Shown piece after piece: positions 1 through 26,490 of a DNA stretch of 64,000 nt. Position numbers and translations under genes: made by a program. The stretch is from Candidatus Kapaibacterium sp. (GTDB lineage: Bacteria; Bacteroidota; Ignavibacteria; Kapaibacteriales; Kapaibacteriaceae). Location of the stretch: assembly GCA_044224925.1 (NCBI GenBank), contig JBGAJM010000010.1, positions 914 to 64,913 of the forward strand. The letters run 5' to 3'. The notes beneath the pieces are model-generated. The model searched no databases. It saw only the letters and a program-made list of their open reading frames with translations, and had not been told where the DNA came from. The first letter of the stretch is position 1. Every line of letters starts with the position of its first letter.

Positions 1-1320
1 GCCATCGATCAGGTCGTACTGACTGCGATGGGCCTCGTCAGCCACAACGACGATGTTGCTCCGGTCCGACAGTAACGGCATTCGGCCGCCCTTTTCATCG
101 GCAAGGAACTTCTGGATCGTCGTGAACACCACACCGCCGCTGGCCACTTTGAGTCGCGTGCGCAGATCGAGCACTGATGCGGCCTGCACGGGCGTTTGAC
201 CGAGCAGTTCATGACAGCGCTGGAACTGACCGAACAGTTGATCATCGAGATCATTTCTATCGGTAAGTACCACCACCGTCGGATTCCGCATCTCCGGGTT
301 CTTGGCGATCTGTGCCACATAGAACAGCATCGTAAAGCTCTTCCCCGATCCTTGCGTGTGCCACACAACGCCAATGCGCTTGTCGCCCTTCTTCCCTTCG
401 GGCATCGAGCCCGTCCAATACGTGCCTTCCGATCCTTCACGTCCTTCCCACATCATCCCACTTGCGCGCACCGTCTCTTGAACGGCAGCTTGCACGGCGT
501 GATACTGATGATAGCCGGCAATGATCTTGTGCACGCTGGCCGTGTCGGTGTCCTCTTCAAAGGCAATGAAGTTGCGCACTAGATCAATGAAGCGCGACGG
601 CTCGAACACACCCTTGATCAACGTCTCCAGTTCCAGCGCCGTTGCCGGCGGTTCGGTGCGACCATCTACTGTGCGCCACACCTTGAACCACTCTTTGTTT
701 GCTGTGAGAGATCCGATGCGCGCACTCGTCCCATCGGAGATCACCAGCAGTTCGTTGTAGCGCATCAGCGACGGGATCTCCTGCTTATACGTCTGCAGTT
801 GATCGAAGGCCTTCCAGATGGTGGCGCTCTCATCCGTTGCGCTTTTCAGTTCGAGGGTGGCAAGGGGCAAGCCATTTACGAAGACCACTACGTCGGGTCG
901 ACGATTCTTCCCTGCATCGATCACCGTGAATTGATTCACAGCGAGGAAGTCGTTGGCGGCAATGTTGGTGGCATCGATCAGGTAGATCGTCTCTCCCGAG
1001 ATCGTCCCATCGGCGCGGCGGCTCTCCACCGTTACGCCATCACGCAGCATGGCATGAAAGCGTCGGTTGGACTCCGTCAGCGACGTCGTCTCTGTCCGCA
1101 ATACCTTGCGAAGCGCCTCTTCGATCACTTCTTCACGCGCCGTCGGATTACATCGGTGCATGGCCGACCGCAAGCGATCGACCAGCACTACATCTTCATG
1201 CGATGCGCGCTCGGCATGCGGCATATCCGGTGCAATGTCGGGACCGAAGAGAACTTCGTAACCCAGATCAGTGAACCATTCGAGGGCGGCGGATTCTATG
1301 TGTGATTCGTTAAGGGTCAT
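1..1320 (-). CDS. hsdR: Type I restriction enzyme R subunit HsdR, N-terminal part (start codon at 1320; gene runs off the window start)
   Basis: Reverse-complement translation from 1320 reads MTLNESHIESAALEWFTDLGYEV..., the canonical HsdR N-terminus, followed by nuclease and helicase motifs (e.g. VVVADEAHRSQY). No complete ORF appears in the track because the stop lies outside the window. Confidence 0.85.
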   Translation of the reverse strand, partial: MTLNESHIESAALEWFTDLGYEVLFGPDIAPDMPHAERASHEDVVLVDRLRSAMHRCNPTAREEVIEEALRKVLRTETTSLTESNRRFHAMLRDGVTVESRRADGTISGETIYLIDATNIAANDFLAVNQFTVIDAGKNRRPDVVVFVNGLPLATLELKSATDESATIWKAFDQLQTYKQEIPSLMRYNELLVISDGTSARIGSLTANKEWFKVWRTVDGRTEPPATALELETLIKGVFEPSRFIDLVRNFIAFEEDTDTASVHKIIAGYHQYHAVQAAVQETVRASGMMWEGREGSEGTYWTGSMPEGKKGDKRIGVVWHTQGSGKSFTMLFYVAQIAKNPEMRNPTVVVLTDRNDLDDQLFGQFQRCHELLGQTPVQAASVLDLRTRLKVASGGVVFTTIQKFLADEKGGRMPLLSDRSNIVVVADEAHRSQYDLIDG

Positions 1321-1326: not shown

Positions 1327-1980
1327 TCAAAACTCAGATCGATGTTTCTTGATATACTCGATGAAGAGCGCATTGATGTCATCTGGGTATGCAAAGAACG
1401 CATTGTCTAATGCCTCCCACCTATGCATGTCTTCGATATTGCGAAACGCAATGTTCTCTCTCAGAGTTTGCTCTACGGGTATGCGCTTGCTAGGGAACAG
1501 TTCATTTGCCTGATGAACGATGTGTGCAGCTTTGTGCGCCCCAATCTCATGCAGTGCATCAACGGCTTGATGGGCGTAGCACCCATATCCATTGGTGTAG
1601 TACTGATTGAATCCACCATTCATGACATCTGCAACAAGCGACGTCACATACACCAACCGTTTCTGCGGCTCAGTAAGTCGGTCCATTCTTCTTCCATAGG
1701 AGCTCAACTCATCGACGAACGTCTCGATCTCCATCATGCTGGCATTCTGATCCTGCGCACGCAATAACGCATCGAGGTTGTCCATCCTTGAGGCTGTGCT
1801 TTTCGATGTTGGTGTGCGCTTTAGCGTTTCGATGATATTGCGAACGAAAGACCCCATGCCCTCACTCCTTGAATGATCCTCTCCACCGCTGGAATACCGA
1901 GACCCCAGCGCGAAATACAAAAACACTATGAGCGATCCGATCACCCCGCTCGCAACAATCCAATTTATGCCGTTTTTCAA
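1327..1980 (-). CDS. DUF4375/DMP19-like domain protein with an N-terminal TM helix (possible DNA-mimic family)
   Basis: 217 aa with a hydrophobic N-terminal helix and an NGGFNQYYTNGYG motif that I associate with the DMP19/DUF4375 family. Sits 7 nt after the hsdR start. Confidence 0.4.
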   Translation of the reverse strand: MKNGINWIVASGVIGSLIVFLYFALGSRYSSGGEDHSRSEGMGSFVRNIIETLKRTPTSKSTASRMDNLDALLRAQDQNASMMEIETFVDELSSYGRRMDRLTEPQKRLVYVTSLVADVMNGGFNQYYTNGYGCYAHQAVDALHEIGAHKAAHIVHQANELFPSKRIPVEQTLRENIAFRNIEDMHRWEALDNAFFAYPDDINALFIEYIKKHRSEF

Positions 1981-2300
1981 AACCAGTTCTCGTCATATGT
2001 GTGCATTACTTCGACACGTCTCCGTCCTGGATCGACTTCAATGTACGTCCCCTTGCTGTCTTCCATTCCTCGCGGCCGTTTGCTGACGCTGATGTAGATC
2101 TTCTGGATTCCGTTATCCTCTGGCGGTCCGATCAGCACATATGCGCCCGTCCGTTCGAGCTCCTTGCGGGCGCGAGCCTCAGCAAAAAGCGATCGAGGAA
2201 ACACAAGTCCGATCCCGCTCCAGTTCGATTTCTCGATCGTGCGGATCCCGCCCGGATCACCGGTGGGTAGGAAGATGCGATTGGAGTAAGGTTTGGTCAT
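1977..2300 (-). CDS. small hypothetical protein (about 107 aa from the internal start MTKPYS)
   Basis: ORF 1977..2420 is truncated to the internal ATG at 2300 so that it does not overlap the DUF4411 gene. Overlaps the DMP19-like start by 4 nt. No domain recognised. Confidence 0.3.
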   Translation of the reverse strand: MTKPYSNRIFLPTGDPGGIRTIEKSNWSGIGLVFPRSLFAEARARKELERTGAYVLIGPPEDNGIQKIYISVSKRPRGMEDSKGTYIEVDPGRRRVEVMHTYDENWF

Positions 2301-2344
2301 TGAAATGTATCTGGGTGCAAACGATGAAGGGTAGCAAGGCAGGG

Positions 2345-2824
2345 TTACAAAACAAAACGCGCACGCTCCCTTCGAAGCATCGTGTATGGGGTCATAAACT
2401 CGATACCTAGTCCTATGCATACGTTAGGGATCTTGATTCTCTTCCGTGAGTCAGCCGCTGCTTCGTGTGTCACCACTATGCATGATTCACAGAGTGCATG
2501 GGCAACGAGAAAGTAGTCAGCGACTTGGAAAAAGGTATGTATAGCAGCAGGCTCGAAGTTCTGTCCGGTTACCCAATTTGCTACATGGCCCAAGTGCGGC
2601 ATTGTGCGTGCGTCGGTTTTCCGGTACAGAAGTTCTCCGTGCGTCTTTGACCAATCACAGAGCTCATCAGCACCAACGTTGATCTCGTCGGCAACCTTGT
2701 CGACACTGTATACAAGTCCTTCGCCATTCTTTACGAGTATCCATTCCCAGAAGGCAGGACAGAAGTCGAAACCATAGTGAAGGTTCTTTGCTTGGATAAA
2801 GACGTTGGCATCGAGCAAGTACAT
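2345..2824 (-). CDS. DUF4411 family PIN-like nuclease
   Basis: N-terminus MYLLDANVFIQAKNLHYGFDFCPAFWEWI matches the DUF4411 signature. Its start overlaps the stop of the upstream ImmA/IrrE gene by 1 nt. Confidence 0.7.
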   Translation of the reverse strand: MYLLDANVFIQAKNLHYGFDFCPAFWEWILVKNGEGLVYSVDKVADEINVGADELCDWSKTHGELLYRKTDARTMPHLGHVANWVTGQNFEPAAIHTFFQVADYFLVAHALCESCIVVTHEAAADSRKRIKIPNVCIGLGIEFMTPYTMLRRERARFVL

Positions 2825-3975
2825 TACAACAGCACTCCCAGTTCACGCGCAGCAGTTTGAAATGTACTCGGCTTTCGAATTCCGAGCATTCGGTACGCAT
2901 CACGAAAGAGTGTCTGTCCTTCCAACGCACTTGAGCATACAGCACGTGCGAACCGCCCACCTACTCTACTTTGAAGAGTCCGATAGAAATCACCACCTGA
3001 ACCGCCGGCGTCTATGTCACGCAGGCGCGATATCTCGACACCGTAGGCATCCTGGAATTGCGATCGACTCAAGAGTTGTGCATCGAACATACTTCGCAAC
3101 ACAACCAAGGTGCTCACTTTGAACACGCGGGCCAATCGTTGCACCTCTGTTTCAATGTCGGCATCCATTCGGTACTCTTCTATCAACATTGCTCGAGGGA
3201 CAAGGAACTCCGCAGCGACAGCATTGCACCAGCGCTCGATCACTCCATCAGGGACCGAAGCAAGATCAGAATCCGATACACCGCTCTCACCGAGCCAGAC
3301 GTGCGCCAATTCGTGGACAATGGTGAACATCTGTGCCGATGTGCTATCGGCCGCATTGACAAATATGAGTGGAGCATACGGATCGGAAAGAGCGAAACCG
3401 CGGAACTCGTCAACGCGAAGCGTACGCGTGGTGTTATTTTCAACGATGGAGCTCGACATCAACATCACACCGGCCTCCTCCGTAGCTAATCTCAATGCAC
3501 GCAAGGCATCCGTCCAGTTTGGGGCGGACCGACGCTTTGCAGCAGTAACGCCAAGAGTGCTACGCATTGAACGAACAACAGCTTCAATAGGCGTTGTTAG
3601 CGTAACGCTGTTCACGAATTCAAGGGGCGAGTGCCCATGAATACGTGCATAGTCTCGGTACCACTCCTGTCGCTGTTGACAGATATAGATGGTATCGAGC
3701 AGATTCGGGCTTGGCCTACTTCTACCACCATTCGTGACAACTCTGAAGTCCGCAATCGGCAAAACCTCTACGGGCGGTCTGTCGAGGAAGAGAAAGCCAA
3801 TGGGCACATGAACAGCTTTGGCAAATTGCTCTAGCTGCCGAAGCGTTGGGAGCTCGGACCCAGATTCCCAATTCATGAGATGCGGAAATCGATGCTGCAA
3901 TGCATGCGCGTCACTCCCCGAGCGTTCTCGCGCCCATTGCAGCATTTCCGGGTGTACTGGTACTCTTGATATCAC
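2824..3975 (-). CDS. ImmA/IrrE family metallo-endopeptidase with N-terminal XRE-type HTH
   Basis: HEXXH motif in HELAHVWLGE; N-terminal HTH-like region (LPTLRQLEQFAKAVHVPIGFLF). This is the classic partner of DUF4411. Confidence 0.7.
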   Translation of the reverse strand: MISRVPVHPEMLQWARERSGSDAHALQHRFPHLMNWESGSELPTLRQLEQFAKAVHVPIGFLFLDRPPVEVLPIADFRVVTNGGRSRPSPNLLDTIYICQQRQEWYRDYARIHGHSPLEFVNSVTLTTPIEAVVRSMRSTLGVTAAKRRSAPNWTDALRALRLATEEAGVMLMSSSIVENNTTRTLRVDEFRGFALSDPYAPLIFVNAADSTSAQMFTIVHELAHVWLGESGVSDSDLASVPDGVIERWCNAVAAEFLVPRAMLIEEYRMDADIETEVQRLARVFKVSTLVVLRSMFDAQLLSRSQFQDAYGVEISRLRDIDAGGSGGDFYRTLQSRVGGRFARAVCSSALEGQTLFRDAYRMLGIRKPSTFQTAARELGVLL

Positions 3976-4782
3976 TTTTCAACTACGTGAGCAAAGCTCT
4001 CTTGAGTGTTTGTTGATTGCGAGTTACAATCTTGGACTCGTGTGCGAAAGATACGAGAGTTGTGATTCTCAATCAGCCTGAACTCACTTGGTTCACCTAC
4101 AGAAAGGAGGATGCGTGTTATATATGACCTTGGCCATGCGTCTTTGATAGCTCTAGACCCAATGGATCTGCGCTTCAGCTCTGGTTCATACACTCCTTCC
4201 CCAACTCCTTCTTTGGTTCTCAGAAGTATCGAACTGGATTTGACCCGCCGGCAAACACATGCCAGTTCGCGTGTGTTGTGCCTACAGCCTTCCAAGACCC
4301 GACATGAATGATACTTCTACCCTGTACAGTCGATGGAGTAAATCTCACGATCACTCCTTCATACAAATCGCCTCCACCATTGGCATTACGAATGTAGACT
4401 ACGCAGCAGGCTCCTTTGAGTATTGCCTGCCTTCTTAGGCCGATCTTCCAATGCCGTGTGACGTTCATTGATCCGTGCGGTTTCCCAGGCAACGGACTAC
4501 GCGTGAAGACCGCTATGCCTGAGCGTCCATTGGCAAGTGTGGCCAGATTTGCCGTTGCCTGTGGTCTCGATGAGAGGCTTCTCGCCACTACTGTTTCCTG
4601 CAGTGAGTGAAAATGACCATCAAGTGCAAAGACCACTTCTGTCCATAACATTGTCCCCGCGTAATCATCATCTAAACGCGAGTATCATAGAAGAAAAATA
4701 TCCTCAACATTGCTCATAGGAATCGAATTCACGGCGCAAGACGATTCGAAGTCGACGACTTCCGCAAAGGACTGGTTGAGGG

Positions 4783-6572
4783 TCATTGCTGCACGACGGC
4801 GATTCCCATCTCCGTCAGGAAACGAGACGGTGCTTTTAAGTATCCAAAGTATCTATCTGAATATGTTATCGTCAGCGCTTCCACCGCACGGGTAAATTCA
4901 ACAAAACAATTCCGGCGTTCCTCTCTCATTTCAAAACTGTCGTCTCCTTTTCTCGTTGCCGCCCAACTTGGAAGCTGATCTTCAACTAAGCCGATGAGGT
5001 AGACACGCTTGAACTCCAAGCCCTTCGAACTATGTATCGTGAGGCAGCGAACCGCGTCCTTCGGCACTGGCGCCTCCTTTGAGCGGAGATCGAACTCCTG
5101 TAGCAGCGAGTGAAGACTTACTTCGCTCTTCCCATACTGCTGAATGACCTCCTGTTGTAGCAGCTTCCAAACTTCTCTTTCCTCCTTATACTCGTCAAAC
5201 ACGGTGTCATCGGTAGTGTGGTGAATCTGAAGTGCGTCAAACCACGCAAATGTAGAGTCGATGAATGCCCAGTGGTCAATACGCTCAAGCAGAGTGCTTT
5301 TCGTTTGCTCAAGGAATGCCCGCGAAAGTGCCGAAACCGTTTCTTGGCTGAGCACCGCTTCAAGCCAGCCCCGCAAATAGTCACCGCTTTGGAATGATGA
5401 TGCAGCAACTACATCCTCCACCCGGATGTTGCTTCCTTCGAGTGAATATGCTGCGCGCACTCAGCGATTACGGAGTCCAACAGTTTCTTGCTCCTACCGA
5501 GAACCACTGAATGGATCCTTACCACCAAGGGATTTTGATTAAACTCTGAAACAATACAATCTACCTCATGCCCAAAATCAGCAAATGGAAACACTCTCAA
5601 TTGTGAATCGTTTGTTGATACCTTGTGTGCTTTAAGGCGCTCCTTACCCTCAGATCGATCAAGATTATGAATAATCAGATTGTTGGCTATCTCGATGACA
5701 GCAGGCGGGCAGCGATAGTTTTCAGGCAGCTGCACAGTTCTCATCGAGAAGCGCTTCAAAAGGTCCTGAAGTCGTTTGGGGTTAGCGCCGTTCCATTGGT
5801 AAATCAGCTGATCGTCGTCAGCGACGACGAACAAGTTCGGCCTGTCTGTCGAAACGAGTGAGCAGAGGAGCCGGAATTGTGTTTCGTTGGTATCTTGGAA
5901 CTCATCAACACACACGTAGCGATAGACGCGTTGAAACTGTTTCGCGATTGCGGGACGCTCTTCCAAAAGTTGAACAGCCAGGCCGATGAGCGAAGCAAAA
6001 TCCAAATGGTTCCCCTTTATGAGTTCAACGCGGTAAGCATTGAACATTTGGGTTAGAAACTCTTTGTGCTGATGTGCGCCTAGCCGCTCGGCCAGTTCCT
6101 TCGGGTTCGAGCACTCAGCAAGCATCTTATCAATGACCGGCAATACGTTGGCAGCTCCTGAGATTGTTTCTGCAACTTCGTCACTGAGCATTCTCATCGC
6201 TTCAGTGGCCACCGCTTCACGGTCCGCTTGCTCGACCAAGATTGTGAAGTCTGGCCTCAGTCCAATGTGGTGTCCATGCTGTCGCAAAACCTCAGCTGCA
6301 AATGAGTGGAAAGTTGTCAGAAGCGCCCTGTCCCTTCCGGTTTTCAACAGCCCCGCAAGACGGGTTCTCATTTCTCCAGCCGCCTTGTTCGTGAAGGTGA
6401 CTCCAAGTATTCGAAAGCGCTCCCCAGAGGTGTCGTTCAGAAGGCGCGCGATGCGATAAGTCAGCACGCGGGTCTTTCCTGAGCCAGGACCAGCAAGTAC
6501 GAGTAACGGCCCATCGTTCCACTGCACGGCTTCGAGCTGCTTTTCATTAAGCGTTGTGAGGTCGATGCTCAT
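4783..6572 (-). pseudogene. gajB: UvrD-like SF1 helicase (GajB-like), split or frameshifted into ORFs 5409..6572 (N-terminal, 387 aa) and 4783..5460 (C-terminal, 225 aa)
   Basis: N-terminal ORF has Walker A LAGPGSGKTRVL and motif II DEFQDTN. C-terminal ORF has UvrD motifs V/VI (LTIHSSKGLEFKRVYLIG, VEFTRAVEAL). The two ORFs overlap by 52 nt in different frames. Confidence 0.6.
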
Positions 6573-8275
6573 AGTCGTGCGTTGTTCACAGCGGTTGTAA
6601 TTGCGGTTTGAATTGTTGCAGGCAGACCCGGTGAGCCACCCTGCTGCGCGGCTTCCACGGCAGCGATTGCGAGGTGGGGTTTAGAGGTAGAGCTAATCGC
6701 CATGCGGATAGTCTGATCTGTGTGCATGGGAGTCCCGGCTGCCGCAGTGATATTAGCCCGTTGTGGCGCACGAACGGCGGAATCGTAAACGGCTGAATAA
6801 CCGTGAGCCCACATTGCGTGCTCAAGGTCCTTCTCGGCCAAGACGGTGAGTCTCTGGGCTTCCTTTGCTGCGCCGCTGAGCCCGCGAGCGGTCATTGCAT
6901 ATGTCTGCCCGGCTGGGTCTCCGTCCGCAAGGACGTGCCACTCAATGCCAAGGTCGGTCGCTAATTTAATCAGAGTAGCGAGACCGCACTGGACGAATTC
7001 CAGACAACACACTCCCTCTAGTTCGAAATCGAAATTGAGAAGGCGGGCTGCTTCAGGAAGAAACCAAAACTCACTCTCACCTTCCACAAGCAGCCAAGAT
7101 TTGGCGAAGAGGAGATTTCCTCGCTTGGCGCGCACGTGATATGCAATCTTGCGTTCATCATCAGGTGTGAGCGTCCCAGGCTGGACTCGGAATACCTCAA
7201 CCTTTCCTTCTTTGCGGGCGAGGCGGCGAACCGCACTGAGCGGGACAGCGGCAAGTAACTCGCCAGAATGGGTCGCGATAATCTTCTGCCCCTTGATCGA
7301 ACTCAGCACCTTCCACAAGGAGCGCACCGCCGATGGGTGGAGGTGAGATTCAGGCTCCTCAATAGCTAGGAGTGGTTCGGAATCTGGGTCGAATGCTTCG
7401 GCGAGCCGTGCATTGAGAAACGCTTCAAAAAGGAACAAGACCGAGAGACTTTGGGTTCCTGCGCCATGTTGGTTGATAGGCAACTTTGCTCCGCTCTTCG
7501 CTGCGAGCTTCACTTGCGTCTTGCTGAGCATATCGAAGATGCGCGCCGGAAATGCCTCTACACTTACGAGATCGTCCGCAGCTAACGGAACGAGTCCGCC
7601 AGTCTTCGCGACTTGTACCTTCACTTCGTTGAACGGCGTATGTGAATCGAGAACAGACTGGTTTATTGCCTCGATCTGCTCCTCCAGTAAGATCCGGGTC
7701 TCTTTATCAATTTGGGGATTCTTCGTGAAAGGTCCCCAAAACGGTGATCGGCTTTGGAAGTGCTGACCAGCGTCACGGACGGCAGCCAAAAAGAAGGCCG
7801 GGTTCAATTGCTGAAGCTCAGATACAATTCTCGGATTCTTTGCGGTCGTGAGTTCATTGTTGTTCAGGTCGAGAAATGACCATTCCAAGGTGAAGTCCTT
7901 TATTGCCGGGTCGTAAGCTGAAACGACCCGAAAACGAACCACCTGCTTATTATCAGCCCGGATTTGCACGGCCTTATCTAGTCCTTGCACAATTGCATCT
8001 GGCCACTCATTTTCCATTGATTCTACAAAGTTGAAATCCATCTCGATCGGCAGGGCGGAACTCGGTTCAGGCCTATCCGCTGTGAGATGAAAATCGTATT
8101 CACCAAACGGGACTACCTTTCTGGAAAGGCTTCGGCTCAAGCAGGTATGGACTGCTTCCAAGACACTGGTTTTGCCCGTGTTGTTTTCGCCGATTAGTAC
8201 TGTGCACTGGTCCAAAGGAATCACAAGCTCTTCGATTCCCCGGAAGTTCTTAATGGTGATTTTGGTTAGTAACAT
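6569..8275 (-). CDS. gajA: OLD-family ATP-dependent endonuclease (AAA ATPase + TOPRIM), GajA-like
   Basis: Starts [17 protein letters not shown] with P-loop GENNTGKTS; C-terminal TOPRIM motifs LLVEGESEF and ADGDPAG. The 4-nt ATGA overlap with the downstream helicase matches class 2 OLD/Gabija architecture. Confidence 0.65.
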   Translation of the reverse strand: MLLTKITIKNFRGIEELVIPLDQCTVLIGENNTGKTSVLEAVHTCLSRSLSRKVVPFGEYDFHLTADRPEPSSALPIEMDFNFVESMENEWPDAIVQGLDKAVQIRADNKQVVRFRVVSAYDPAIKDFTLEWSFLDLNNNELTTAKNPRIVSELQQLNPAFFLAAVRDAGQHFQSRSPFWGPFTKNPQIDKETRILLEEQIEAINQSVLDSHTPFNEVKVQVAKTGGLVPLAADDLVSVEAFPARIFDMLSKTQVKLAAKSGAKLPINQHGAGTQSLSVLFLFEAFLNARLAEAFDPDSEPLLAIEEPESHLHPSAVRSLWKVLSSIKGQKIIATHSGELLAAVPLSAVRRLARKEGKVEVFRVQPGTLTPDDERKIAYHVRAKRGNLLFAKSWLLVEGESEFWFLPEAARLLNFDFELEGVCCLEFVQCGLATLIKLATDLGIEWHVLADGDPAGQTYAMTARGLSGAAKEAQRLTVLAEKDLEHAMWAHGYSAVYDSAVRAPQRANITAAAGTPMHTDQTIRMAISSTSKPHLAIAAVEAAQQGGSPGLPATIQTAITTAVNNARL

Positions 8276-9579
8276 GGCAGTGAACTCTCGGGTGTAACCC
8301 TCATCTCCCCACTCAACAACTTCGGTAAAATCGTTTCACGCAGGGTTGCGAGGGTACGGGATTGTTGTTTGTTAATCTTGGTTTGGGCGTCCAGCTTGCC
8401 CACCGCCCGCTGGAAGGCCTCTTGAATTTCGATTGGCGGCAAAATGATGGGCATGCTGTTAACTGAATCGAAAGTGATTTGAGGGAAAGTACCTGATCGA
8501 GATTCCGCTTGCAATTGGAATTCATCTAAGGTTTCCTGTGCCGTTAGGATGCGGTACATTAGGCGTGGATGTATCGCTTCAGAGCCTCGGATGACCATAA
8601 ATTTGGTTGAGACCACGTAGTCACTGGAATCGAAGTCCACGTATGCATAACGCTTGTTTGCGGGGCGGATTTCGCTAAAGAGGATGTCGTCGGGACGAAT
8701 GGATTTCTTGGCTTGCCCTGGCAAACCGGTGTGTTGGCTCCGCTTTTCGTGGAGGAAGTCGCCTTCCAACACATCGCCCGTATTGATGAAAACCACCTCG
8801 AGTGTGCGCTTGAAATCAAACGTGATGGAAACGTTGTTCGCAATGTCTCCAAGCGTGCAAGCTTGCCAACCTTTGGGGATGTGGCCGAGGCTTGAGTCTT
8901 GGAAAGAGTCGGGGAAGAGGGCTGCGGTGGTTGCGTCCATGCCGGTGGGTTGGCGGCCGTCGAGTTTGGCGCGAACGGGGTCGAAGTCTACGAACCAGCT
9001 TTTGAAGAGGGCGCGCGCCATTGATTCAAGGGTCTCGTTCATTCGGCGGTTCAACTCGATCTTGTCGTCGAGGTCGCCGAGGATCTTGGCGATGGCTTTT
9101 TGCACTTGGATTGGAGGAATTGGAAAACGAAGACGTTCCAAAGTCTGAATATTGATGTTGTCCTGTACACTTCCAGTTGCTTGGTGCTGAATACGTTTCC
9201 GCATAAAACGGAACATGTACTCAATGAACTTAACATCGGCCTTAAGGGGATCTGCGATGAAACCAACGACACTATCCGGGAAGCATGCAGGAAAGGTCAG
9301 GATCGCTGTCTCGGCGATGTTCGCCGCAATCGTGATGCACATTGTTCCTGAAGGCCATAATCGACTCTGTGCCAGCCCTACTTCCGAATAGGTCTGTGAA
9401 TACGATGTAATCTTGCCATTTGATGCCTTAACATCACCTGTTTGGATGAATGGATAAGGCCCTCCATAAAGGTGCTCCGCGTAGCGGGGCCGATAACGAG
9501 AGCGGCCTCTCCCAACCTCTCCGAGTTCATGCAAACTCACCAATTGCCAGCCGTTCGGGCACTCAAACTCCAAAACCAA
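8266..9579 (-). CDS. hsdS: Type I R-M specificity subunit HsdS
   Basis: 437 aa with two target-recognition-domain halves and conserved HsdS repeat regions ([10 protein letters not shown]..., [12 protein letters not shown]). Overlaps hsdM by 17 nt. Confidence 0.8.
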
Positions 9580-11086
9580 ACCCCTTCAAGTTGTTCTTGA
9601 TCTCGGACTCGAGGCGGGCAGATTCGGCAAACTGCTCGTAGAGTGTTGTTGTGAGGCGTTTCATCTTTTCATCGAAGGGTTCACCATCATCCTCAACTGT
9701 TTCTGCACCAACATATCGGCCGGGTGTGAGGACGTGCCCGTGCGATGCGATCGTCGCGAGTGATGTCGATGCGCAGAAGCCGGCAACATCAGCGTAGTCC
9801 TTGCCGCCTTGCCAAGCTTGTAGTGTTCCGACGATCTTGGTGATGTCTTCGGACATGAGTTCACGGTTGACGCGCGACGTCATGGTGCCCATCTTGCGTG
9901 CATCGATGAAGAGCACTTCGCCTTTGCGTTGCTTGTTCTTGTTGATGAACCAGAGGCAGACGGGGATCTGCGTACTGTAGAAGAGTTGGCCGGGGAGGGC
10001 GACCATGCATTCGACGAGATCGTGTTCGATGAGTGACTTGCGGATCTCGCCTTCGCCGCTTTGATTCGAGCTCATGCTGCCGTTCGCAAGCACGAAGCCG
10101 GCCTTGCCGCGGGGACCCAGGTGATGGATGAAGTGTTGCACCCAGGCGAAGTTCGCATTGCCCTTTGGTGGCACACCATACTTCCATCGCACATCGTCAT
10201 CCTTGCGGAACCAATCGCTGTCGTTGAATGGTGGATTGGCGATGACGAAGTCGGCCTTGAGATCCGGATGCACATCGCGACGGAATGTGTCGGCATGCTC
10301 CGGTCCAATGTCGGCCTCGATCCCGCGGATCGCAAGATTCATGATGGCAAGTCGACGCGTGGTGGCGTTGCTCTCCTGTCCGTAGATGCTGATGTCGCCG
10401 ATCTTCCCGCCATGCGCCTCGACGAACTTCTCGCTCTGCACGAACATGCCACCGGATCCGCAACACGGATCGTAGATGCGACCCTTGTAGGGTGCGAGCA
10501 TCTCGACCAACAAGCGCACGATGCATGATGGTGTATAGAACTGTCCGCCGTTCTTCCCTTCCGCGCTTGCGAACTGCATGAGGAAGTACTCATAAACGCG
10601 ACCCAGCACGTCCTTCGAACGATTCTCTGCATCGCCAAGACCGATGGTGCTCACGAGATCGATCAACTCACCAAGTCGATGCTTGTCGAGAGCGGGTCGG
10701 GCATAGTCCTTTGGCAGCACACCTTTCAGTCGCGGATTGTCGCGCTCGATGGCCACCATGGCATCATCCAAGAACGTCCCGATCGTCATCTGTCGTGCAT
10801 TCGCCTGCAGATGCGACCACCGCGCCTCCTTCGGCACCCAGAACACCCCTTTGGCGCGATACTCATCGGCATCTTCCGGATTCGCATCCGGTTCATTCGT
10901 GAGTTGCGTGAACAGTTCTTCGAAGGAATCGGAGATGTACTTCAGGAAGATCAGACCAAGCACCACGTGCTTGTACTCTGACGCATCCATGTTGCTGCGC
11001 AGCTTGTCGGCCGCCTGCCACAGCGTGGCTTCAAAGCCGACGTTGGCGGTGGAGGAAGAGGAGGAGGATTTCTTGGATTTGGCCAT
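9563..11086 (-). CDS. hsdM: Type I R-M N6-adenine DNA methyltransferase HsdM
   Basis: HsdM_N region ([32 protein letters not shown]); SAM and catalytic motifs including VIANPPFN. Confidence 0.85.
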
Positions 11087-11109: not shown

Positions 11110-11736
11110 TTACTCTTCAGCGATCATTCGTTTCAGTTCGGAAACACATTTGGGACCGATCAGGAGTCCCTCCAACTGTTCGCCGTTGGAATACGACCCA
11201 AGCCGATTCAAGGCTTTCGAGACATAACCTTCGATGACGTTTGTGGCTACTGCTGCGATTGGACCAAGACCAAGTGAAGTGGTGGCTGCCAACGACATAA
11301 CATCCTTACCCAACACTGAGACCAAGACCTGGGTTAGGGGTGCAACACTCATTTGACCTTTCGACAATAGTGCCATCTCCTTTTTACCGCCCGGCGTGTA
11401 CTGTACCGTCACCGTTGATTGCTTGAGAAGCTTTCCATGCGTGATCATCGCCGGGGTACGAAGTTCTAAACTGACGGACAACCTCACTCTGCCATCCTTT
11501 AACAAGGATCTCTCAACAGCCGTGATCCAGAAGCTGTAGTCCTCTCCTACTTCGCCACAACGAAATGTAGGACAGCTTTTAAGTGAATGTTCGATTCCTG
11601 ACTTGATGTGACGCAGTTCTAGCTTCTCTTCAAAAGCGGTCTTCAAGTCGATCTTGATCATTCCGTCTTGCGCACAAAGCGGTGCGACAATCGGACTCAT
11701 GAACAGGAACAGACTGATAAGTACGATCTTTTTCAA
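11110..11736 (-). CDS. secreted hypothetical protein with signal peptide
   Basis: N-terminal [23 protein letters not shown] signal sequence; no recognisable domain. Confidence 0.5.
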
Positions 11737-11948
11737 TTCCAGGGTCCTTTCGATACTGAGCGAATTCTCACTCAGTGTGATTGCTCGTGGTTACTACAAC
11801 TCATTGCTATTGCGCCACATCTCGCGTCATCCGAACAAACGTCTCGCAACGGACAGTTCAATGCCGGCATACACGCTACCGTACCTCCCTCAATTCGATT
11901 CAGCGTCATCAACTGCTTCTCAAGAGCCCACAACACAACAACCGAACA

Positions 11949-13862
11949 TCATCTACAGATCACGAGCGGCTTTACGAAGACGCCGGCACCGCGCTGCACG
12001 CGCACGTGGTACAGGCCGGAGGCCCAACGTGCGAGGTCCAGACGGGTGACTCCATCGGCATCGACCGTGAACGTGCGAACAACCGATCCATCCAGGGCCA
12101 TGATCCGCACGTCGTCGCCTGTGCGGAGGCCATCAAGAACAAGATCTTCGTCTGAGCCAGCCGGATTCGGATAGATGCTGATCTGCGCGTCTGCGACATC
12201 CGGCTCTTGAACAGAGACGGGTTGATTCGTACATGTGCTCGACGGTCCGGGATCTGCAAGGAACAGTTTCCATGCCCCTTCGGCGGCCGCAATGGCGAAC
12301 TCGTATTTGGTGTGCTGCTCGAGCGCGTTGGGCGAGGTTCCGAAACTGCTGGCGCCGTGCATGACGATCGCAGCACTATCGGACACATCGACACCATTGC
12401 GGAAAACCCGCACACCCTTTGCCGAGTCTTGATAGACGTAGATACCCCAATGCTCCGATCCATTTCCGGTGAAGAGCTCAAAGAGGTTGTAGCATGTAGC
12501 GTTCGACGGCTGCGTGGTCGCAAGAACCCAGTCGTTGAGTATGTGAAGCCGACCGTTACAGTATTGTGCGTAGAGGTAGGAGTAACGTCCGCGGGCAGGC
12601 ATCAGCGTACCTGGCCATTCACCGGATGTGAAGTCTCCATCGATGTCCATCACACCCGAGCAGGCGTTGCGGATGGAATCTCCGCTTCCATACCGGATCA
12701 CGCATGTGTCGTTCCGAAGGACGCCAGAGAATGCGCTAGGCTCAGTTGTAAGACCCACGATTCCTGACGTTGGAATGTAGCGCTGATCCTGACGTGTGAC
12801 GGTGCCATTCTCCGTAAGCATCGCTTGTCGGTAGTACGGCTCCTGGATCAGACCTGTGCCATCGTCCTTACAATCCAGCGCAACGGTGGTCGACGGAGTG
12901 CGCTCGACCGGATCGCTGCCGATCTCCATGAAGAACAAGCCGACCGATGCCTTGATCCCAAACTCATAGATCGTATGCGTCGTGCCATGACATGGCGAAG
13001 TCGAGAAGCCGAAGCGTACGCCAACGACGATGGCGGTATCGTCGGTAACATCTTTGCCGTTGAGTTCCACAACCACCGGACGCGCCGTATCGTGGTTCAC
13101 CTTGATCTTCCAATTCTCACGACCGTTGCCGGTTGAAAAGCCGAACACGTTATAGCACGTCTTCTCATACGGACCATTGCCGATCCCCCAGTCGTTCATG
13201 AGGTACATGATCTGCGACTTCGGACAGTAGTCCAAGTAGAGTTTTGAGAAACGGCCGAGGAGCGGCGTGATCCCTTCCCACTCTTGTGGTCTTCCAGGTC
13301 GGGACCGTGTGAACAGCCCATCGATCGTGTGCATCGAGTCACAAGCGAGATCGGTTGGCCAACCGTAGCCGCCCGGCGGATTCGTGACGCTTGGCTCTCG
13401 CTCGACGATCCGCGGCGTGCGTGAGAGATCGACGGGAGGACCGTTTTGCGTGGTGGGATCCGGATCGAAGGAATTCACGGCCGTGTCGAGAAGAGCACGC
13501 TTGGCGACAACCGTAGCGAGAGCTCTGCCCCATGGTCCGTCACTGATGCAGAACGAGATCGTCACGTCGCCGATTGGCGTCTGCGCCGGAAGCGTGAACG
13601 AGATGCTCTTCGCCGTAACGCCGATCACCGTTGCTTCAGTCGTCCCCACGTAGACACGAGCCAGATCCTTGATCGCCGGGGAAACGATCCCACTTCCCTC
13701 GACCACCAGTGTTCCGCTCCCTTCGATGCCAATGGTCGCCGGCTCGCAACGGACGGTGAGTTTCTCGAACATCGTATCGCATTGTGCTTGTAGCACATGA
13801 TCTGAAAGTCCGAACAGAACTGCAGCGATCAAGCTGCAACGCAAGAGGAGGTCACGTGTCAT
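11949..13862 (-). CDS. T9SS C-terminal-domain secreted protein containing an internal tandem domain duplication
   Basis: Signal peptide and a C-terminal Por sorting domain (ISIYPNPAGSDEDLVLDGL...VFVKPLVICR). Two homologous ~200-aa internal repeats (LMNDWGIGNGPYEKTCYNVFGFSTGNGRENW... / ILNDWVLATTQPSNATCYNLFELFTGNGSEHW...). Confidence 0.65.
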   Translation of the reverse strand: MTRDLLLRCSLIAAVLFGLSDHVLQAQCDTMFEKLTVRCEPATIGIEGSGTLVVEGSGIVSPAIKDLARVYVGTTEATVIGVTAKSISFTLPAQTPIGDVTISFCISDGPWGRALATVVAKRALLDTAVNSFDPDPTTQNGPPVDLSRTPRIVEREPSVTNPPGGYGWPTDLACDSMHTIDGLFTRSRPGRPQEWEGITPLLGRFSKLYLDYCPKSQIMYLMNDWGIGNGPYEKTCYNVFGFSTGNGRENWKIKVNHDTARPVVVELNGKDVTDDTAIVVGVRFGFSTSPCHGTTHTIYEFGIKASVGLFFMEIGSDPVERTPSTTVALDCKDDGTGLIQEPYYRQAMLTENGTVTRQDQRYIPTSGIVGLTTEPSAFSGVLRNDTCVIRYGSGDSIRNACSGVMDIDGDFTSGEWPGTLMPARGRYSYLYAQYCNGRLHILNDWVLATTQPSNATCYNLFELFTGNGSEHWGIYVYQDSAKGVRVFRNGVDVSDSAAIVMHGASSFGTSPNALEQHTKYEFAIAAAEGAWKLFLADPGPSSTCTNQPVSVQEPDVADAQISIYPNPAGSDEDLVLDGLRTGDDVRIMALDGSVVRTFTVDADGVTRLDLARWASGLYHVRVQRGAGVFVKPLVICR

Positions 13863-13872
13863 GGGTTGTAGA

Positions 13873-15699
13873 TCAGCGTTGAATGAGCAGTTTGAAGGTC
13901 GTCGTTCCTTGCGGCGTCATGATCCGGCCATAGTAGACACCACGTGATAGATCCTGTGTATCCAGACCGATGCGGTTCAAGCCCTCGTGCGCATCGACAA
14001 CTTCTATGGATCGAACCCGTGATCCCGTTGCATCGATCAGCTCAAGCGTGGCTTTTCCAGGAGCTTTCATCAACACGATCACTTCGGCGCGATCCGCGGT
14101 TGGTGTTGGTTGGACGATCGCGGATTGTTGGTTCGTATAGGAGTCGGGGTCGATCTCCACGCCCGTCACCACCGGATCGCACGAATACACGACCGAACGC
14201 GAAAGGAGTGTGTCGTTCGCTACGTAGACGATCTGAAGCTTCTGCGAGCCCATGGTTGGATCGCAGTCGGGCAGCGTAAAGTAGATCGTACAGCACTCAT
14301 CCTCCGAGATCTCCGAGATCAACCGACCATACAGACTGTCAAGCTCCGCACCGCGATCGATCTGAAACACCTTACCGCGCGGCGCGGCGGCGACGAATGA
14401 GCGCATCGTATCGAGCGCTTTCAGTTCGTTCGGATCGTTCTTGAATCCTAGGGCCACGAGATAGATCGGAATGTTCGCTTGTGTGATCGCGTCCACCAAT
14501 TGAGCGGGTCGTATCGTCGATCGATTGTCGACGCCATCCGTCATCGCGATCACAAACCGGTTTGGACTCGAGTTCACGCGTGCCTTGGCAAGACCAACAC
14601 TCAGCGCGTCATAGAACGCCGTATTCCCATCGGCGTTGAGATCGTTCACCGTTGTGATCAATTCCTGCTTGTTCGACGTCCAGTCCTTGCGTAGCTCCAC
14701 CACGTCGTTGAATCGGATCACACATGCACTATCACTGGGATGCATGCGGTTGATGAAGCGCGTGAGTGCGCGCTTGATCGCATCCATACGCGTGATCGTC
14801 TCGTTCTCGTACGAGATGTCGCTTCGCATACTGCCAGAGTTATCGACCACCAAGACCGCTGACATCTCATTGCCCGCCTCGCGTTGGTCGCATCGAATGG
14901 AGTCAGGACAAATGAAGCGTCCGTTCACAGCGATGCCGAGCTGGTTTGCTTCGCGGAGGCGATTCACTCGACCGTCGACCGCATTGGTATCGCTTGCGAG
15001 AATGGACGCGTCGATCTTCAGCCCTACCACCCTTCCGCTGCTCACCACCTTTTCGACATTACAAAGGTTGATGTCTTCCGGCAGGATCTCTTCGACGGTC
15101 ACTTTCAGTCCACCGCAATTGTCCTCATATCGCGCCACCGTCCGCTGCTGCGCGATGTTGAACGTTGAATCCAGGATCTGGAACACGAATGCCGAACCCG
15201 TACCGGCCTTCTCGATCTGATACCGGTGGATCGAACGGTTCAATGGTTGCGCGGGGAGCGGCTCTCCGTTGACGCGAAAGCCGAGGTTCTTTCGGAAACT
15301 GATCTCGAACAACGGCGTGAGTCCGAGCGACTTCGGCGGGAAGGCCCACACGGTCGAATCTCCCACCCAATGTGGGATCTCGACAAATGGCGAGGTAAGG
15401 ATACGTTTGGGTGGCCAGCGAAATGCATCGATCTCCTCTTGGGGTACATCGTACACCCAGGCTGCATCGACACCGTGGCAATCCGTGAACTGCGGCCACT
15501 GGCTATATGTGCCTTCTACCGTAATCCGGTAGGTGGCCGTTGGCCTGGTCGGCGGCGAGGAGATCGCAATGCCGGACGTAGCATCAAGTCGGGTTGTGAA
15601 GGGGAATTGCGCGAGTGCCAGCGTGGGCACCATCGCGAACACCGTCATGCAGATCAAAAGTTTGCGGACCAAGTCCATGCCACCACGTACAACCGTCAC
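13873..15699 (-). CDS. von Willebrand factor A domain protein with T9SS C-terminal sorting domain
   Basis: MIDAS motif in LVVDNSGSMRSD...TAFYDAL...MTDGVDN; signal peptide; C-terminal T9SS-like domain (ATLELIDATGSRVRSIEV...GVYYGRIMTPQGTTTFKLLIQR). Confidence 0.65.
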   Translation of the reverse strand: MTVVRGGMDLVRKLLICMTVFAMVPTLALAQFPFTTRLDATSGIAISSPPTRPTATYRITVEGTYSQWPQFTDCHGVDAAWVYDVPQEEIDAFRWPPKRILTSPFVEIPHWVGDSTVWAFPPKSLGLTPLFEISFRKNLGFRVNGEPLPAQPLNRSIHRYQIEKAGTGSAFVFQILDSTFNIAQQRTVARYEDNCGGLKVTVEEILPEDINLCNVEKVVSSGRVVGLKIDASILASDTNAVDGRVNRLREANQLGIAVNGRFICPDSIRCDQREAGNEMSAVLVVDNSGSMRSDISYENETITRMDAIKRALTRFINRMHPSDSACVIRFNDVVELRKDWTSNKQELITTVNDLNADGNTAFYDALSVGLAKARVNSSPNRFVIAMTDGVDNRSTIRPAQLVDAITQANIPIYLVALGFKNDPNELKALDTMRSFVAAAPRGKVFQIDRGAELDSLYGRLISEISEDECCTIYFTLPDCDPTMGSQKLQIVYVANDTLLSRSVVYSCDPVVTGVEIDPDSYTNQQSAIVQPTPTADRAEVIVLMKAPGKATLELIDATGSRVRSIEVVDAHEGLNRIGLDTQDLSRGVYYGRIMTPQGTTTFKLLIQR

Positions 15700-15880
15700 G
15701 TTATCACCCTCATTCTATGAATACGTACGCGAATGTAACGAAATGCGCATTGATTTTTCAGCGCACACGTTCGAGTCGCCGAAGATCGGAGAAGTGGCGA
15801 CATGTGGTGTCGTCAACGCTACTGCACATCAGTAGCACGTGAATACTGTGCAATTGATCGAGAACGATCGATCACCGTCT

Positions 15881-16786
15881 TCACCCCTCAAAATAGTCAC
15901 TGTCGATCTTCTTGATCTCGATCGTCCGGGCAATCGACACACCAACGTTATGCTCGATCATGAGTTCTGCCAACCGAGCTCCATCAATGAGGATCACTTT
16001 CTGAGAGATAGCGCTGGCGTACTCGTGGGCACCTTTTGAGAAATCAGAGGTGGTTATCATGATCCCTTTGTTTGCCTGTTTTCCGGCAAGAGCACCGACG
16101 AAGGCCTGCACGTCCCCACGACCTACGTTACTCGACCACCGCTTTGCTTGGATGTAGACGACGTCAAGACCCAATCGGTCCTGGTTAATGATGCCATCAA
16201 TACCTTCATCGCCTGATTTCCGAGTGACGGTTGAGGCTTCCTCACGCGAACCACCGTATCCCATTGCCGAGAGCAGGTCCACGACCAACTGTTCGAACTG
16301 ATACGGATCCATCCTCGCCATTTGTCCAATTAGTTCTGCGGCCAGTGAAAGGTTGAGTTTCTCGAAGGCATCGGAGATCAACTCATCCGGTGTCACCTCG
16401 GAATCGTCATCGGTGGGGGCTTCATTCTTGGAGGACCGCTCCGATCGATCTCGGAAGGCAACAAATGACGGGAACTGACTCAAGTAGCGGACCGTGATGC
16501 GATCCGGCGGCGACTGTAGCACCCTGCGACCTTCATCGCTGATCGAGTACACAGCTCGTTTCTCTGAAACAATGAGCCCAGCCTGCTTGAGATGCGTTAG
16601 GCACCAACCGATTCGGTTTGCAAAGAGCGGTGCGCGACGGCTCGGTAGCATCTCGGCGAGTTCCTCACTTGTGAGTTGATACTTCTCAGCCAAGCTCGTC
16701 CGTATCTGATTCGTAGAGGTCTCTCCCTTTATATCGATCAACTGAAGGATTGGGAGCATCATCGACTGAAAGTCGGGTATCGGCAT
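15881..16786 (-). CDS. mrr: Mrr-family type IV restriction endonuclease (Mrr_N winged helix + Mrr_cat)
   Basis: N-terminus MPIPDFQSMMLPILQLI...; catalytic PD-(D/E)xK region GDEGIDGIINQDRLGLDVVYIQAKRW. Confidence 0.75.
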   Translation of the reverse strand: MPIPDFQSMMLPILQLIDIKGETSTNQIRTSLAEKYQLTSEELAEMLPSRRAPLFANRIGWCLTHLKQAGLIVSEKRAVYSISDEGRRVLQSPPDRITVRYLSQFPSFVAFRDRSERSSKNEAPTDDDSEVTPDELISDAFEKLNLSLAAELIGQMARMDPYQFEQLVVDLLSAMGYGGSREEASTVTRKSGDEGIDGIINQDRLGLDVVYIQAKRWSSNVGRGDVQAFVGALAGKQANKGIMITTSDFSKGAHEYASAISQKVILIDGARLAELMIEHNVGVSIARTIEIKKIDSDYFEG

Positions 16787-16828
16787 TTGAGCTCAATGAT
16801 TGGTTGAGAACAATAGACAGGTCACTAT

Positions 16829-17290
16829 TTACAACAAATCCTCGCCGGTCAGCGCCATTTCCATTCTGTCCGCTTCTCTTGCACATTGCAGGATGGCGAA
16901 TCGGATCTCCGGCTTTGTCAAACCCACAGTTGGAAGTTCACAGACGACCGTGAATCCATCGTTCTCAACAATAGCACGAGCCATCGGCATTCCGGCATTC
17001 TGGTCCGCAAGAAACTCAACCTGTTCTTTTTCTGTCCTGCTCGGATCTACTGGGGCCGAATAACTGCGGAACTCTACCGACTTTTCGTTCAGTCTCCACA
17101 TAACGTCTTGTTTGCGGCCGTGGTCAAGAGAGACGCGAACCTTCGCTCGCATTACACGAAACGTCGCTGCCGGAAGCGCGCTGATCAGGCTCTCGAGCTG
17201 TTCATTCGTCATATGTCGCTCCATCATGTTCTTCATCCGTTCTGATGATCTCACGTTCCACATCGTCCGCTGCACGCGTAACCCGCTCAA
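16829..17290 (-). CDS. small hypothetical protein (130-153 aa), last gene of the PLD-SNF2 operon
   Basis: ORF overlaps the SNF2 gene stop. The likely start is an internal Met (17212-17227), giving a short overlap. No confident domain; weak resemblance to the YbjN/chaperone-like fold is speculative. Confidence 0.35.
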   Translation of the reverse strand: MSGLRVQRTMWNVRSSERMKNMMERHMTNEQLESLISALPAATFRVMRAKVRVSLDHGRKQDVMWRLNEKSVEFRSYSAPVDPSRTEKEQVEFLADQNAGMPMARAIVENDGFTVVCELPTVGLTKPEIRFAILQCAREADRMEMALTGEDLL

Positions 17291-20200: not shown

Positions 20201-20687
20201 CCTGGGATTCCGCTGTGACCATTTCACCCTCTTCGACAGATGCCGACAAGCTGAAGCTGCCGAGACGAAGGAAGAAATCACGGTCTGGGTCGATCGAGAC
20301 CTCCCTGACAAAGTCGAACAGTGAACTGATCTTGACCTGTTTCCGCGACGAACCGCCGTTCAGGCCCTGATTTCGCAGATCCGCAAAGCGCACGTTGTTC
20401 TTCGAGAACTGCTTCATCTCCTTCATCCACTTTTCTTGGATGTTACCTCGAGGCGCGATGATCGCCACTCGAATATCTGGCTTGAGATGTCTGATAAGCG
20501 CAAGCGCTCCCATCGCAACATAGGTCTTCCCCATGCCGACTTCGTCGGCGAGATACGCCACGCCTTGGGTATCTAGGATGTTGGCTATCGCGACTGCACC
20601 CTCAAGCTGAGTCGCAGCAGTGTAGTCTGGAACTCCCTTCCCCTTGAATTCGAGCAGTTTCGATGCAAGACGAATGTCGTACTTCAT
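17202..20687 (-). CDS. SNF2-family (SF2) helicase, 1161 aa
   Basis: Motif I LADEVGMGKTYVAMG, motif II LLIVDEGHNLK (DEGH box), motif VI QRIGRVDRV. About 300 aa of extra C-terminal extension. Confidence 0.75.
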   Translation of the reverse strand: MKYDIRLASKLLEFKGKGVPDYTAATQLEGAVAIANILDTQGVAYLADEVGMGKTYVAMGALALIRHLKPDIRVAIIAPRGNIQEKWMKEMKQFSKNNVRFADLRNQGLNGGSSRKQVKISSLFDFVREVSIDPDRDFFLRLGSFSLSASVEEGEMVTAESQERLLNRLRDVLPFVKVERFARGTKDVLKKRVATEINKVLPYFDLLIVDEGHNLKHGLKKGTAARNHTLNAVFKGKVGSVLFLSATPVEQSYGHLFGQLEVFDKGDNFTSLKDGAVKPGTSTVLTEAEKHECARQFLIRRTYSISVAGQALTRNMYRLEWRHGGLTEHDEPLGRPTLKQYLATALVQKNVSTVLRTRFGNAFQTGLLASFESFEETLENVLDVKGNVESSDSSEIFDGAEQTNDSRVKNGADVGVVNAITRSHRDRFHTELPHPKMDALVDHLTSRFHTGEKALVFVRRIAWVREIKPRLDEHYNEFIIGRMRAELRVYSKSISRFNKCVEEYYENLLKRKRHRTPDIDIEKLSEVEKADPGGINTFFEWYFRGEGPSDVFSGATLNKRFRSTTGVYATFFELNYCSYVLEVPASGVLSRLAELLSLGEDELVQRVKDKARTVRKRGSNSDERTRQAQFEAVQYAALIELRDSHNKESQIASVLLNVRFEGYTHGDGSNPVDIDVKRWLEMPTYFSELMNDTELCSELWGADVVRADTDAKCEMLLRKMSVLSTTSRLGHAFVDLYLCVARYRSSIRIRTRASHGDDVDDQKSDDKLVRSWLEELRRQKTDELHGKGGFRAYHELREVASNLDSIIDLNLDDLGSQSPIAYDRVTARTLGEQMPVAGMYGRINRRVVKQFRMPGYPFVLVTTDLLQEGEDLHLFCARIYHYGIGWMPSSMEQRIGRVDRVRSLTERRLTRMSDQIVDAAKIQVYYPYLKETYETLQVKRVFERMNAFHQMMHETAVRNDSGSEIVVTAQSLADLQIPPAITEPLKSAFPVSRELLHGTERTLKESGSKAKALAKRFAAICRELKKLQQVEWDLHPEPYRYRGVVNLENGRREDIILTMETEHDQVYVTCRSIIYDGPVHKLQNGWRTILSHPELKHVIVRKSLKQEAIQLRSIGEVLLGNDSFDVERVLWCIERVTRAADDVEREIIRTDEEHDGATYDE

Positions 20688-24117: not shown

Positions 24118-24141
24118 GATAGGTGTGTCGCAGCAGCACGG

Positions 24142-24594: not shown

Positions 24595-24686
24595 CGCAGC
24601 ACCTGTCATCAGTGTTCCATGTTGCGTTCGAAGCGAACCTACGGGTGTGCGCACTGCGACTCCATGACTTTGATCATGCGTTGTCG

Positions 24687-26486: not shown

Positions 26487-26490
26487 CAAG

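Follow-up and report, generated by a model that had tools for sequence, protein, structure and literature searches.

The Gabija system of Bacillus cereus VD045 forms a 4:4 complex (PDB 8SM3, 8U7I, 8J4T) in which a class-2 OLD nuclease, GajA, with an ABC ATPase and a TOPRIM domain that carries the catalytic Glu and DxD, is paired with GajB, a UvrD-like superfamily 1A (SF1A) protein encoded directly downstream. Gabija defence needs both proteins, and GajB mutants in Walker A or Walker B lose it (bioRxiv 10.1101/2023.05.02.539174). In B. cereus, GajAB is essential in vivo as a 4:4 complex, mutation of the GajA-GajB interface abolishes defence, and the major contacts between the two proteins lie in GajB domain 1B (PMC10781630). 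More generally, class 2 OLD nucleases are defined by their tandem arrangement with a UvrD/PcrA/Rep-like helicase (PMC10781630). Here we describe a Gabija cassette, gajA and gajB, within a 64,000-nucleotide (nt) stretch of Candidatus Kapaibacterium sp. DNA (contig JBGAJM010000010.1, positions 914 to 64,913; hereafter the window), where the pair sits inside a type I restriction-modification (R-M) operon. We are fairly confident that gajB has been broken by a 133-bp deletion and that the cassette is most likely dead, having been pseudogenised recently.

The described system most similar to the window is that of Synechococcus sp. WH 5701 (locus L008). It belongs to the same PADLOC subfamily (PDLC00094/PDLC00114), its GajA and GajB are 81% and 75-81% identical to those of the window, and it shares the gene order hsdM-hsdS-gajA-gajB-hsdR and the 4-nt gajA/gajB overlap. 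The WH 5701 organisation has been published, and knock-outs of gajB and hsdR had just a small effect against one cyanophage (PMC11726456). In contrast, the window gajB lacks 133 nt and is frame-broken, and ~3.4 kb of extra cargo lies between gajB and hsdR. The B. cereus proteins are distant by phmmer, with GajA matching over its N-terminal 65 residues only (E = 1e-9) and GajB over ~115 residues (E = 1e-15). GajB is 494 amino acids (aa) long in B. cereus and 637 aa ancestrally here, where it is closer to PcrA/UvrD, and it is truncated in the window. Among solved structures, the closest match to the window GajA is the class 2 OLD protein of Thermus scotoductus (PDB 6P74, E = 2e-14), set against a partner helicase that is disrupted in the window. 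A defence gene nested in a type I hsd operon is also known from prrC in the EcoprrI type IC R-M locus (PMC12707154); PrrC, however, acts as an anticodon nuclease and monitors the R-M enzyme physically, whereas the pairing of Gabija with R-M here is known from gene order. The system, its subfamily and its placement in a type I R-M operon have thus already been described, and the lesion is ordinary pseudogenisation.

An intact gajA precedes a disrupted gajB

The Gabija genes are adjacent and co-oriented with gajA first, an arrangement found in all relatives, and they overlap by 4 nt (ATGA, 6569-6572, minus strand), as the first-pass annotation of this DNA had noted. GajA matches the PADLOC profile PDLC00094 over its full length (E = 6.9e-246, positions 1-567 of 569). 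Its N-terminal part is an ABC-type ATPase and its C-terminal part a TOPRIM domain with the catalytic glutamate and DxD, assigned by Pfam as AAA_15/DUF2813 and OLD-like TOPRIM. The retained motifs are GENNTGKT at 29 (Walker A), EEPESHLH at 306 (Walker B region), ATHS, VEGESE at 397 (TOPRIM glutamate) and ADGD at 450 (DxD). Only three departures, all conservative, occur among 241 invariant columns. The OLD gene stands in tandem with a UvrD/PcrA/Rep-like helicase gene, here a remnant. The profile matches to GajA and GajB are strong and far beyond chance; together with Pfam, the motifs and the Thermus match they bear out the initial description of a Gabija-like class-2 OLD nuclease, with P-loop ATPase and TOPRIM (VEGESE, DGD), accompanied by a UvrD-like helicase.

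The helicase gene is split, as initially reported, into open reading frames (ORFs) of 387 and 225 aa, which overlap by 52 nt (5409-5460). The 387-aa piece comprises the UvrD-helicase N-terminal domain (Pfam, E = 1.4e-67) with GPGSGKT and DEFQD, while the 225-aa piece comprises UvrD_C (E = 5e-18). When matched to the PADLOC GajB profile PDLC00114, the N-terminal piece covers positions 2-374 of 635 (E = 4.2e-159) and the C-terminal piece positions 416-632 (E = 1.4e-88). Roughly 41 profile positions are therefore unaccounted for despite the overlap of the ORFs, which argues against a point frameshift.

The GajB protein search returned several thousand homologues, the closest of them single proteins of ~637 aa with 60-84% identity, and relative DNA was compared for L001, L002/L009, L004-L008, L010, L013 and L014. 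A metagenome scan with intact GajB gave mostly distant UvrD-like genes (27-45% identity), of which only L013 and L014 were useful. We aligned the window gajB with L001 (89% nt identity) and L002 using MAFFT, taking the intact 637-aa homologue P0001 as reference numbering. This places the break between 5449 and 5448 and shows a single internal gap of 133 nt, with no other internal indel; at its C-terminus, the window gene carries a 9-nt (3-codon) extension. The deletion takes out the third base of codon 375 and the whole of codons 376-419, so that 44 codons and one base are lost, the frame is shifted and 45 residues are hit (QGVPAYIAVRKSQFISAPVSWLHAALRLANARQDREQLRKVCKAF). Translation from the gajB start yields 374 native residues and 13 junk residues before a stop. 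The C-terminal piece has no native start, as GTG at 5460 is merely the first start codon in frame and lies upstream of the junction. As a whole, a complete SF1A GajB with all motifs in one polypeptide is missing from the window copy, while the ancestral GajB, as in all relatives, is such a single polypeptide. The gene had been annotated as frameshifted; the frame is indeed broken, yet the lesion is a 133-nt deletion rather than a simple frameshift. We considered whether the missing segment had been relocated or a second gajB copy existed, and rejected both, since the deleted peptide is encoded nowhere else in the window and no second copy is present there.

Programmed ribosomal frameshifting would be another way to read two overlapping ORFs. 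A -1 shift within the 52-nt overlap would allow a continuous product, fusing the pieces into one helicase of 595-600 aa. Direct reading of the overlap, however, reveals no slippery heptamer. Residues 375-419 would be missing from the fusion as well, and no relative is so arranged, all having single 637-aa ORFs. We give this explanation practically no weight.

A 133-nt loss could also have arisen in metagenome assembly or consensus, with the real genome carrying an intact 640-aa gajB. The sequence is known from a single NCBI contig of 78,017 bp, the 26-nt junction was not found in the metagenome contig collection or on any other contig, exact look-ups of the 387-aa ORF and GajA gave no second record, and both gajB halves are still open. 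On the other hand, a clean loss of this size is unlike the usual homopolymer or indel error, and the alignment with L001 and L002 showed no microhomology or repeat flanking the junction that could collapse in assembly. A sequencing error, one of the options initially put forward, is ruled out as the lesion type in the form of a homopolymer indel, and the independent substitutions described below also speak against an artefact, which we regard as unlikely.

The deleted segment belongs to the conserved helicase core

The 45 deleted residues include five invariant and 17 near-invariant columns in an alignment of 63 homologues. The segment is present in all 10 close relatives for which DNA was available and in full-length close homologues (~637 aa). 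A natural isoform without residues 375-419 was rejected, as the shorter homologues P0022, P0024, P0032, P0033 and P0117 all keep the segment; their shortness is due to a truncated N-terminus or the end of a contig, and in P0117 to a C-terminus that is out of frame. This last homologue (Logan contig, 4853 bp; 66% identity) has ~140 C-terminal residues unrelated to the family and apparently out of frame, which may be another gajB lesion of independent origin or an error in sequencing.

An AlphaFold model of the intact P0001 (predicted local distance difference test 88.7, predicted template modelling score 0.82) can be superposed along its whole length on UvrD, PcrA and Rep, with a template modelling score of ~0.77. 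In this model, the segment takes in the final part of helix 362-374, then strand 379-381 and helix 391-404, and the greater part of helix 409-423. The strand at 379-381 is the final one ahead of an all-helical block, residues 391-540, which we take to be domain 2B. The GajB pattern VVLGRSKKLL...GVPAYIAV presumably represents motif IV followed by the 'IPYxIxGG' strand of PcrA/UvrD, a region that the phmmer alignment does not cover. On this model, the lost codons would encode the final 2A strand, which follows motif IV, the linker from 2A to 2B, and one and a half helices at the beginning of 2B. The N-terminal product would thus be composed of 1A, 1B and an incomplete 2A, followed by the 13 junk residues.

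Such a lesion might be tolerated if the split helicase reassembled from its two ORFs, or if the 387-aa fragment docked onto GajA and modulated the nuclease without ATPase activity. Domain 1B, which makes the main contacts with GajA in B. cereus (PMC10781630), is retained in the N-terminal piece, gajA is intact and both gajB pieces are open frames. Against this, the 45 conserved residues, including the 2A strand, are absent from both polypeptides, no homologue among those listed has a split or a shortening here, and the C-terminal piece combines the lack of a native start with motif VI substitutions at invariant positions. The raised nonsynonymous change in gajA described below argues further against continued GajA-centred selection. 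We therefore hold tolerance of the lesion to be very unlikely, and with it the initial suggestion of a helicase split into two translated polypeptides, from both of which the conserved residues would be missing.

Both Gabija genes show signs of decay beyond the deletion

Consistent with the proposed pseudogenisation of gajB, the remaining sequence has changed at conserved sites. Among 136 columns that are invariant in the 63 homologues, the window GajB departs at three, all in the C-terminal piece (K585R, A603E and I604F), compared with a mean of 0.6 per other sequence and 0-1 in close relatives. A603E and I604F alter motif VI from VAITRA to VEFTRA, a motif that aligns with YVGITRA of PcrA. 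Furthermore, W339C changes a column with 90% conservation. These four substitutions are signs of decay independent of any indel, and together with a ratio raised in gajA and gajB and not in hsdM and hsdR, they speak against an assembly error.

Parsimony counts on the terminal branches of a Fitch tree gave 48 nonsynonymous and 75 synonymous changes for the window gajB. In five close relatives, the ratio ranges from 0.11 to 0.56 (pooled 67/211; Fisher p = 0.003 against the window). For gajA, the window count is 34/73, and three relatives have 7/65, 8/65 and 15/74. As same-branch controls, the operon's own hsdM and hsdR were included in three-taxon counts, which on the window branch amount to 26/67 for gajB, 21/34 for gajA, 7/42 for hsdM and 3/32 for hsdR (Fisher p = 8e-4); the corresponding counts in the sister L001 are 4/25 and 6/91. 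On the window branch, the Gabija genes thus accumulated ~2-6 times more nonsynonymous per synonymous change than hsdM/hsdR and sister lineages. A lineage-wide nonsynonymous rise was rejected because neither hsdM nor hsdR is raised, so that the excess is specific to the Gabija genes and not a property of the host lineage. The rise in both genes is in keeping with selection having been lost for the entire cassette, with the R-M genes still under constraint. Taken together, the deletion size, the loss of conserved core, the motif VI substitutions and the raised ratio in both Gabija genes favour the decaying defence gene, one of the options that the first-pass annotation had left side by side.

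In our reading, gajA (class-2 OLD) and gajB (UvrD-like SF1A helicase/ATPase) are carried as cargo between hsdS and hsdR, inside a defence island, and a single 133-bp deletion in this lineage has removed gajB codons 375-419 and shifted the frame. Judging from published work, the SF1A ATPase site would need both RecA-like domains. Since the B. cereus system needs GajB ATPase activity and the GajAB complex, and its ATPase and interface mutants lose defence, the window cassette is by analogy most likely non-functional. It would have begun to drift, with gajA still open and apparently intact, while hsdM, hsdS and hsdR are still under strong purifying selection.

Several observations weigh against a dead cassette. 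The ratio on the window branch, ~0.4-0.6, is far below the neutral expectation of ~3, and each gajB piece is still a long open frame, uninterrupted by additional stops; inactivation was therefore recent, or selection has not fully lapsed. As a rough estimate, only the last 10-20% of the branch would have been neutral. The raised ratio itself is based on small counts and simple parsimony, not on a codon model, and gajA of the relative L014 is similarly high (35/74). In addition, the deletion is known from one contig of one assembly, with its junction absent from the metagenome collection, and the GajB requirement is extrapolated from the B. cereus protein of 494 aa, which is distant from the 637-aa subfamily.

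A Gabija call from hidden Markov model matches alone would misjudge function in this genome. The locus provides a datable example of defence-gene decay in an R-M operon otherwise under selection, and carries little weight beyond annotation.

The hsdS-hsdR gap as a cargo slot

The operon is ordered hsdM, hsdS, gajA, the disrupted gajB, ~3.4 kb of cargo and hsdR, making the Gabija pair genes 3 and 4 (Table 1). All three type I R-M genes are found, with the first 440 codons of hsdR within the window, and the gajA start overlaps the hsdS stop by 10 nt. The Gabija genes had been correctly recognised as a pair; their nesting within a type I R-M operon, with hsdS before and hsdR after them, had been missed.

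Table 1 Features of the Gabija and type I R-M locus in the window
Feature	Position	Strand	Basis
hsdM, type I methyltransferase, operon gene 1	9563..11086	-	N6_Mtase and HsdM_N (Pfam); PADLOC MTase_I, E = 2.3e-215
hsdS, type I specificity subunit, directly upstream of gajA	8266..9579	-	Methylase_S x2 (Pfam); PADLOC Specificity_I, E = 3.8e-91
gajA, class-2 OLD nuclease, 568 aa, intact	6569..8275	-	DUF2813, AAA_15, OLD-like_TOPRIM; PADLOC GajA
gajB N-terminal ORF, 387 aa	5409..6572	-	UvrD-helicase; PADLOC GajB
gajB 5' part, native codons 1-374: 1A, 1B, 2A through motif IV and next helix	5451..6572	-	90% aa identity to P0001 residues 1-375
gajB deletion junction, ...GCGCAGCA / TATTCAC... (minus-strand reading)	5448..5449	-	MAFFT alignment with L001, L002
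Out-of-frame tail of 387-aa ORF, 13 non-homologous residues HIHSKEATSGWRM from His375 on	5409..5450	-	Stop at 5409-5411
gajB C-terminal ORF, 225 aa	4783..5460	-	UvrD_C; PADLOC GajB
gajB 3' part, 221 codons and stop, homologous to residues 420-637 of intact GajB: rest of 2B, return to 2A, motifs V and VI	4783..5448	-	88% aa identity to P0001 residues 416-637
Cargo between gajB and hsdR, ~3.4 kb	1327..4782	-	Pfam, PADLOC, comparison with relatives
Unannotated cargo ORF	4651..4220	-	
Unannotated cargo ORF	4295..3972	-	
RmrA-like M78 peptidase (cargo)	3975..2824	-	Pfam, PADLOC
DUF4411 protein (cargo)	2824..2345	-	Pfam
PDC-S14 remnant (cargo)	2420..1977	-	PADLOC
DMP19-like gene (cargo)	1980..1327	-	PF14300
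hsdR 5' part, first 440 codons, runs off window start	1..1320	-	HSDR_N, E = 1.9e-50; SWI2_SNF2, E = 3.8e-44

The layout hsdM-hsdS-gajA-gajB-hsdR is common to L001, L005 (a Chlorobiota metagenome-assembled genome, MAG), L008, L013 and L014, and recurs across phyla, including Chlorobiota, Synechococcus and Verrucomicrobia-type contigs. Across the close relatives of these phyla, GajA is 78-93% identical and HsdS only ~33%, which indicates that the cassette moves horizontally. Flanking hsdM and hsdR were not seen in the close relatives L004, L006, L007, L009 and L010, some of whose contigs are short; L006 has no more than an hsdR fragment upstream and an unrelated hsdM downstream. In the metagenome scan, R-M adjacency was absent at distant Gabija-like loci.

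The ~3.4 kb of cargo between gajB and hsdR is absent from L001, L005 and L013. The hsdR of the window shares 66% aa identity with the gene after gajB in L001 and 85% nt identity with hsdR of L094, a syntenic relative of the window host (hsdM 87%, hsdR 85% nt identity). Instead of Gabija, the hsdS-hsdR gap of L094 holds a class-1 Old of 568 aa with 21% identity to the window GajA, together with an AbiP-like gene, a full PDC-S14 gene and a hydrolase with a type IX secretion system (T9SS) tail; at this locus (11532-19887), a DUF1016/PDC-S02 nuclease lies between hsdM and hsdS. The different cargo identifies the hsdS-hsdR gap as an exchangeable slot. In L014, two hsdR 5' fragments (6643-6933 and 8380-8808; ~80 and ~170 codons), each followed by other ORFs, lie between gajB and the full hsdR. 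These remnants, along with a near copy of the hsdR start in the window (below), suggest recombination at the 5' end of hsdR as the way in which cargo is exchanged in the gap, with fragments left behind. This cargo-slot behaviour, with its leftover hsdR 5' fragments, is the most interesting by-product of the analysis and the more useful lead. In the window itself, the gajB stop region at 4775-4786 (-) reads ATGACCCTCAAC, a near copy of the true hsdR start ATGACCCTTAAC at 1309-1320 (-), 3.4 kb downstream.

The recurrent, translationally coupled layout could alternatively reflect a functional coupling of Gabija to restriction, as a back-up when phage proteins block the processing of restricted DNA ends, with the 1A/1B GajB fragment of the window docking onto intact GajA in a helicase-less variant complex. 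The presence of other cargo in the same slot of the syntenic relative points to a cargo hot spot rather than an obligate coupling, and we see only a slight chance for this reading.

Within the cargo, a 383-aa peptidase of the M78/IrrE type (PADLOC RmrA-like, E = 9e-15) lies directly next to a 159-aa DUF4411 protein (2345-3975, minus strand), the stop of one and the start of the other having one base in common. The two resemble a toxin-antitoxin pair of the RosmerTA type, inserted between gajB and hsdR. For a 147-aa ORF at 1977-2420 (-), the match to the PADLOC PDC-S14 profile is confined to positions 14-91 of 320, and its DNA is 77% identical to the start of the full 284-aa PDC-S14/DUF4357 gene of L094 (16769-17623). 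The partial match and the full-length counterpart mark it as a second decayed defence gene in the cargo region. Directly upstream of hsdR, at 1327-1980 (-), lies a gene for a DMP19-like protein (PF14300, 217 aa), a member of a DNA-mimic family and curious beside a restriction subunit.

Wider genomic context

A defence island extends upstream of the R-M operon (15881-27771, minus strand). It includes an Mrr-type type IV restriction enzyme (15881-16786, minus strand), a PDC-M27A/B/C trio (Azaca-like) with ZacB/ZacC-like PLD and SNF2-type helicase proteins (17202-24117, minus strand) and an AbiEii-like nucleotidyltransferase (26491-27771, minus strand). The window also holds at least seven paralogues in which TPR repeats are joined to the catalytic domain of an adenylate/guanylate cyclase (609-817 aa; 30215-44376 and 52346-54799), and six of these are located within one 14-kb cluster. 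A promoter and terminator scan found fewer promoter-like sites than in shuffled sequence, with nothing inside gajB; the scan carries no weight here, and promoters of the sigma-70 type are probably not in use in this host.

A T9SS sorting domain (Por_Secre_tail) forms the C-terminus of three large proteins (11949-15699, minus strand, and 49175-51628, plus strand), which suggests a host from the Bacteroidota/Fibrobacteres-Chlorobi-Bacteroidetes (FCB) group. The closest Gabija relatives, in contrast, come from Verrucomicrobia-type MAGs, unlike the FCB-type host, which is consistent with horizontal transfer.

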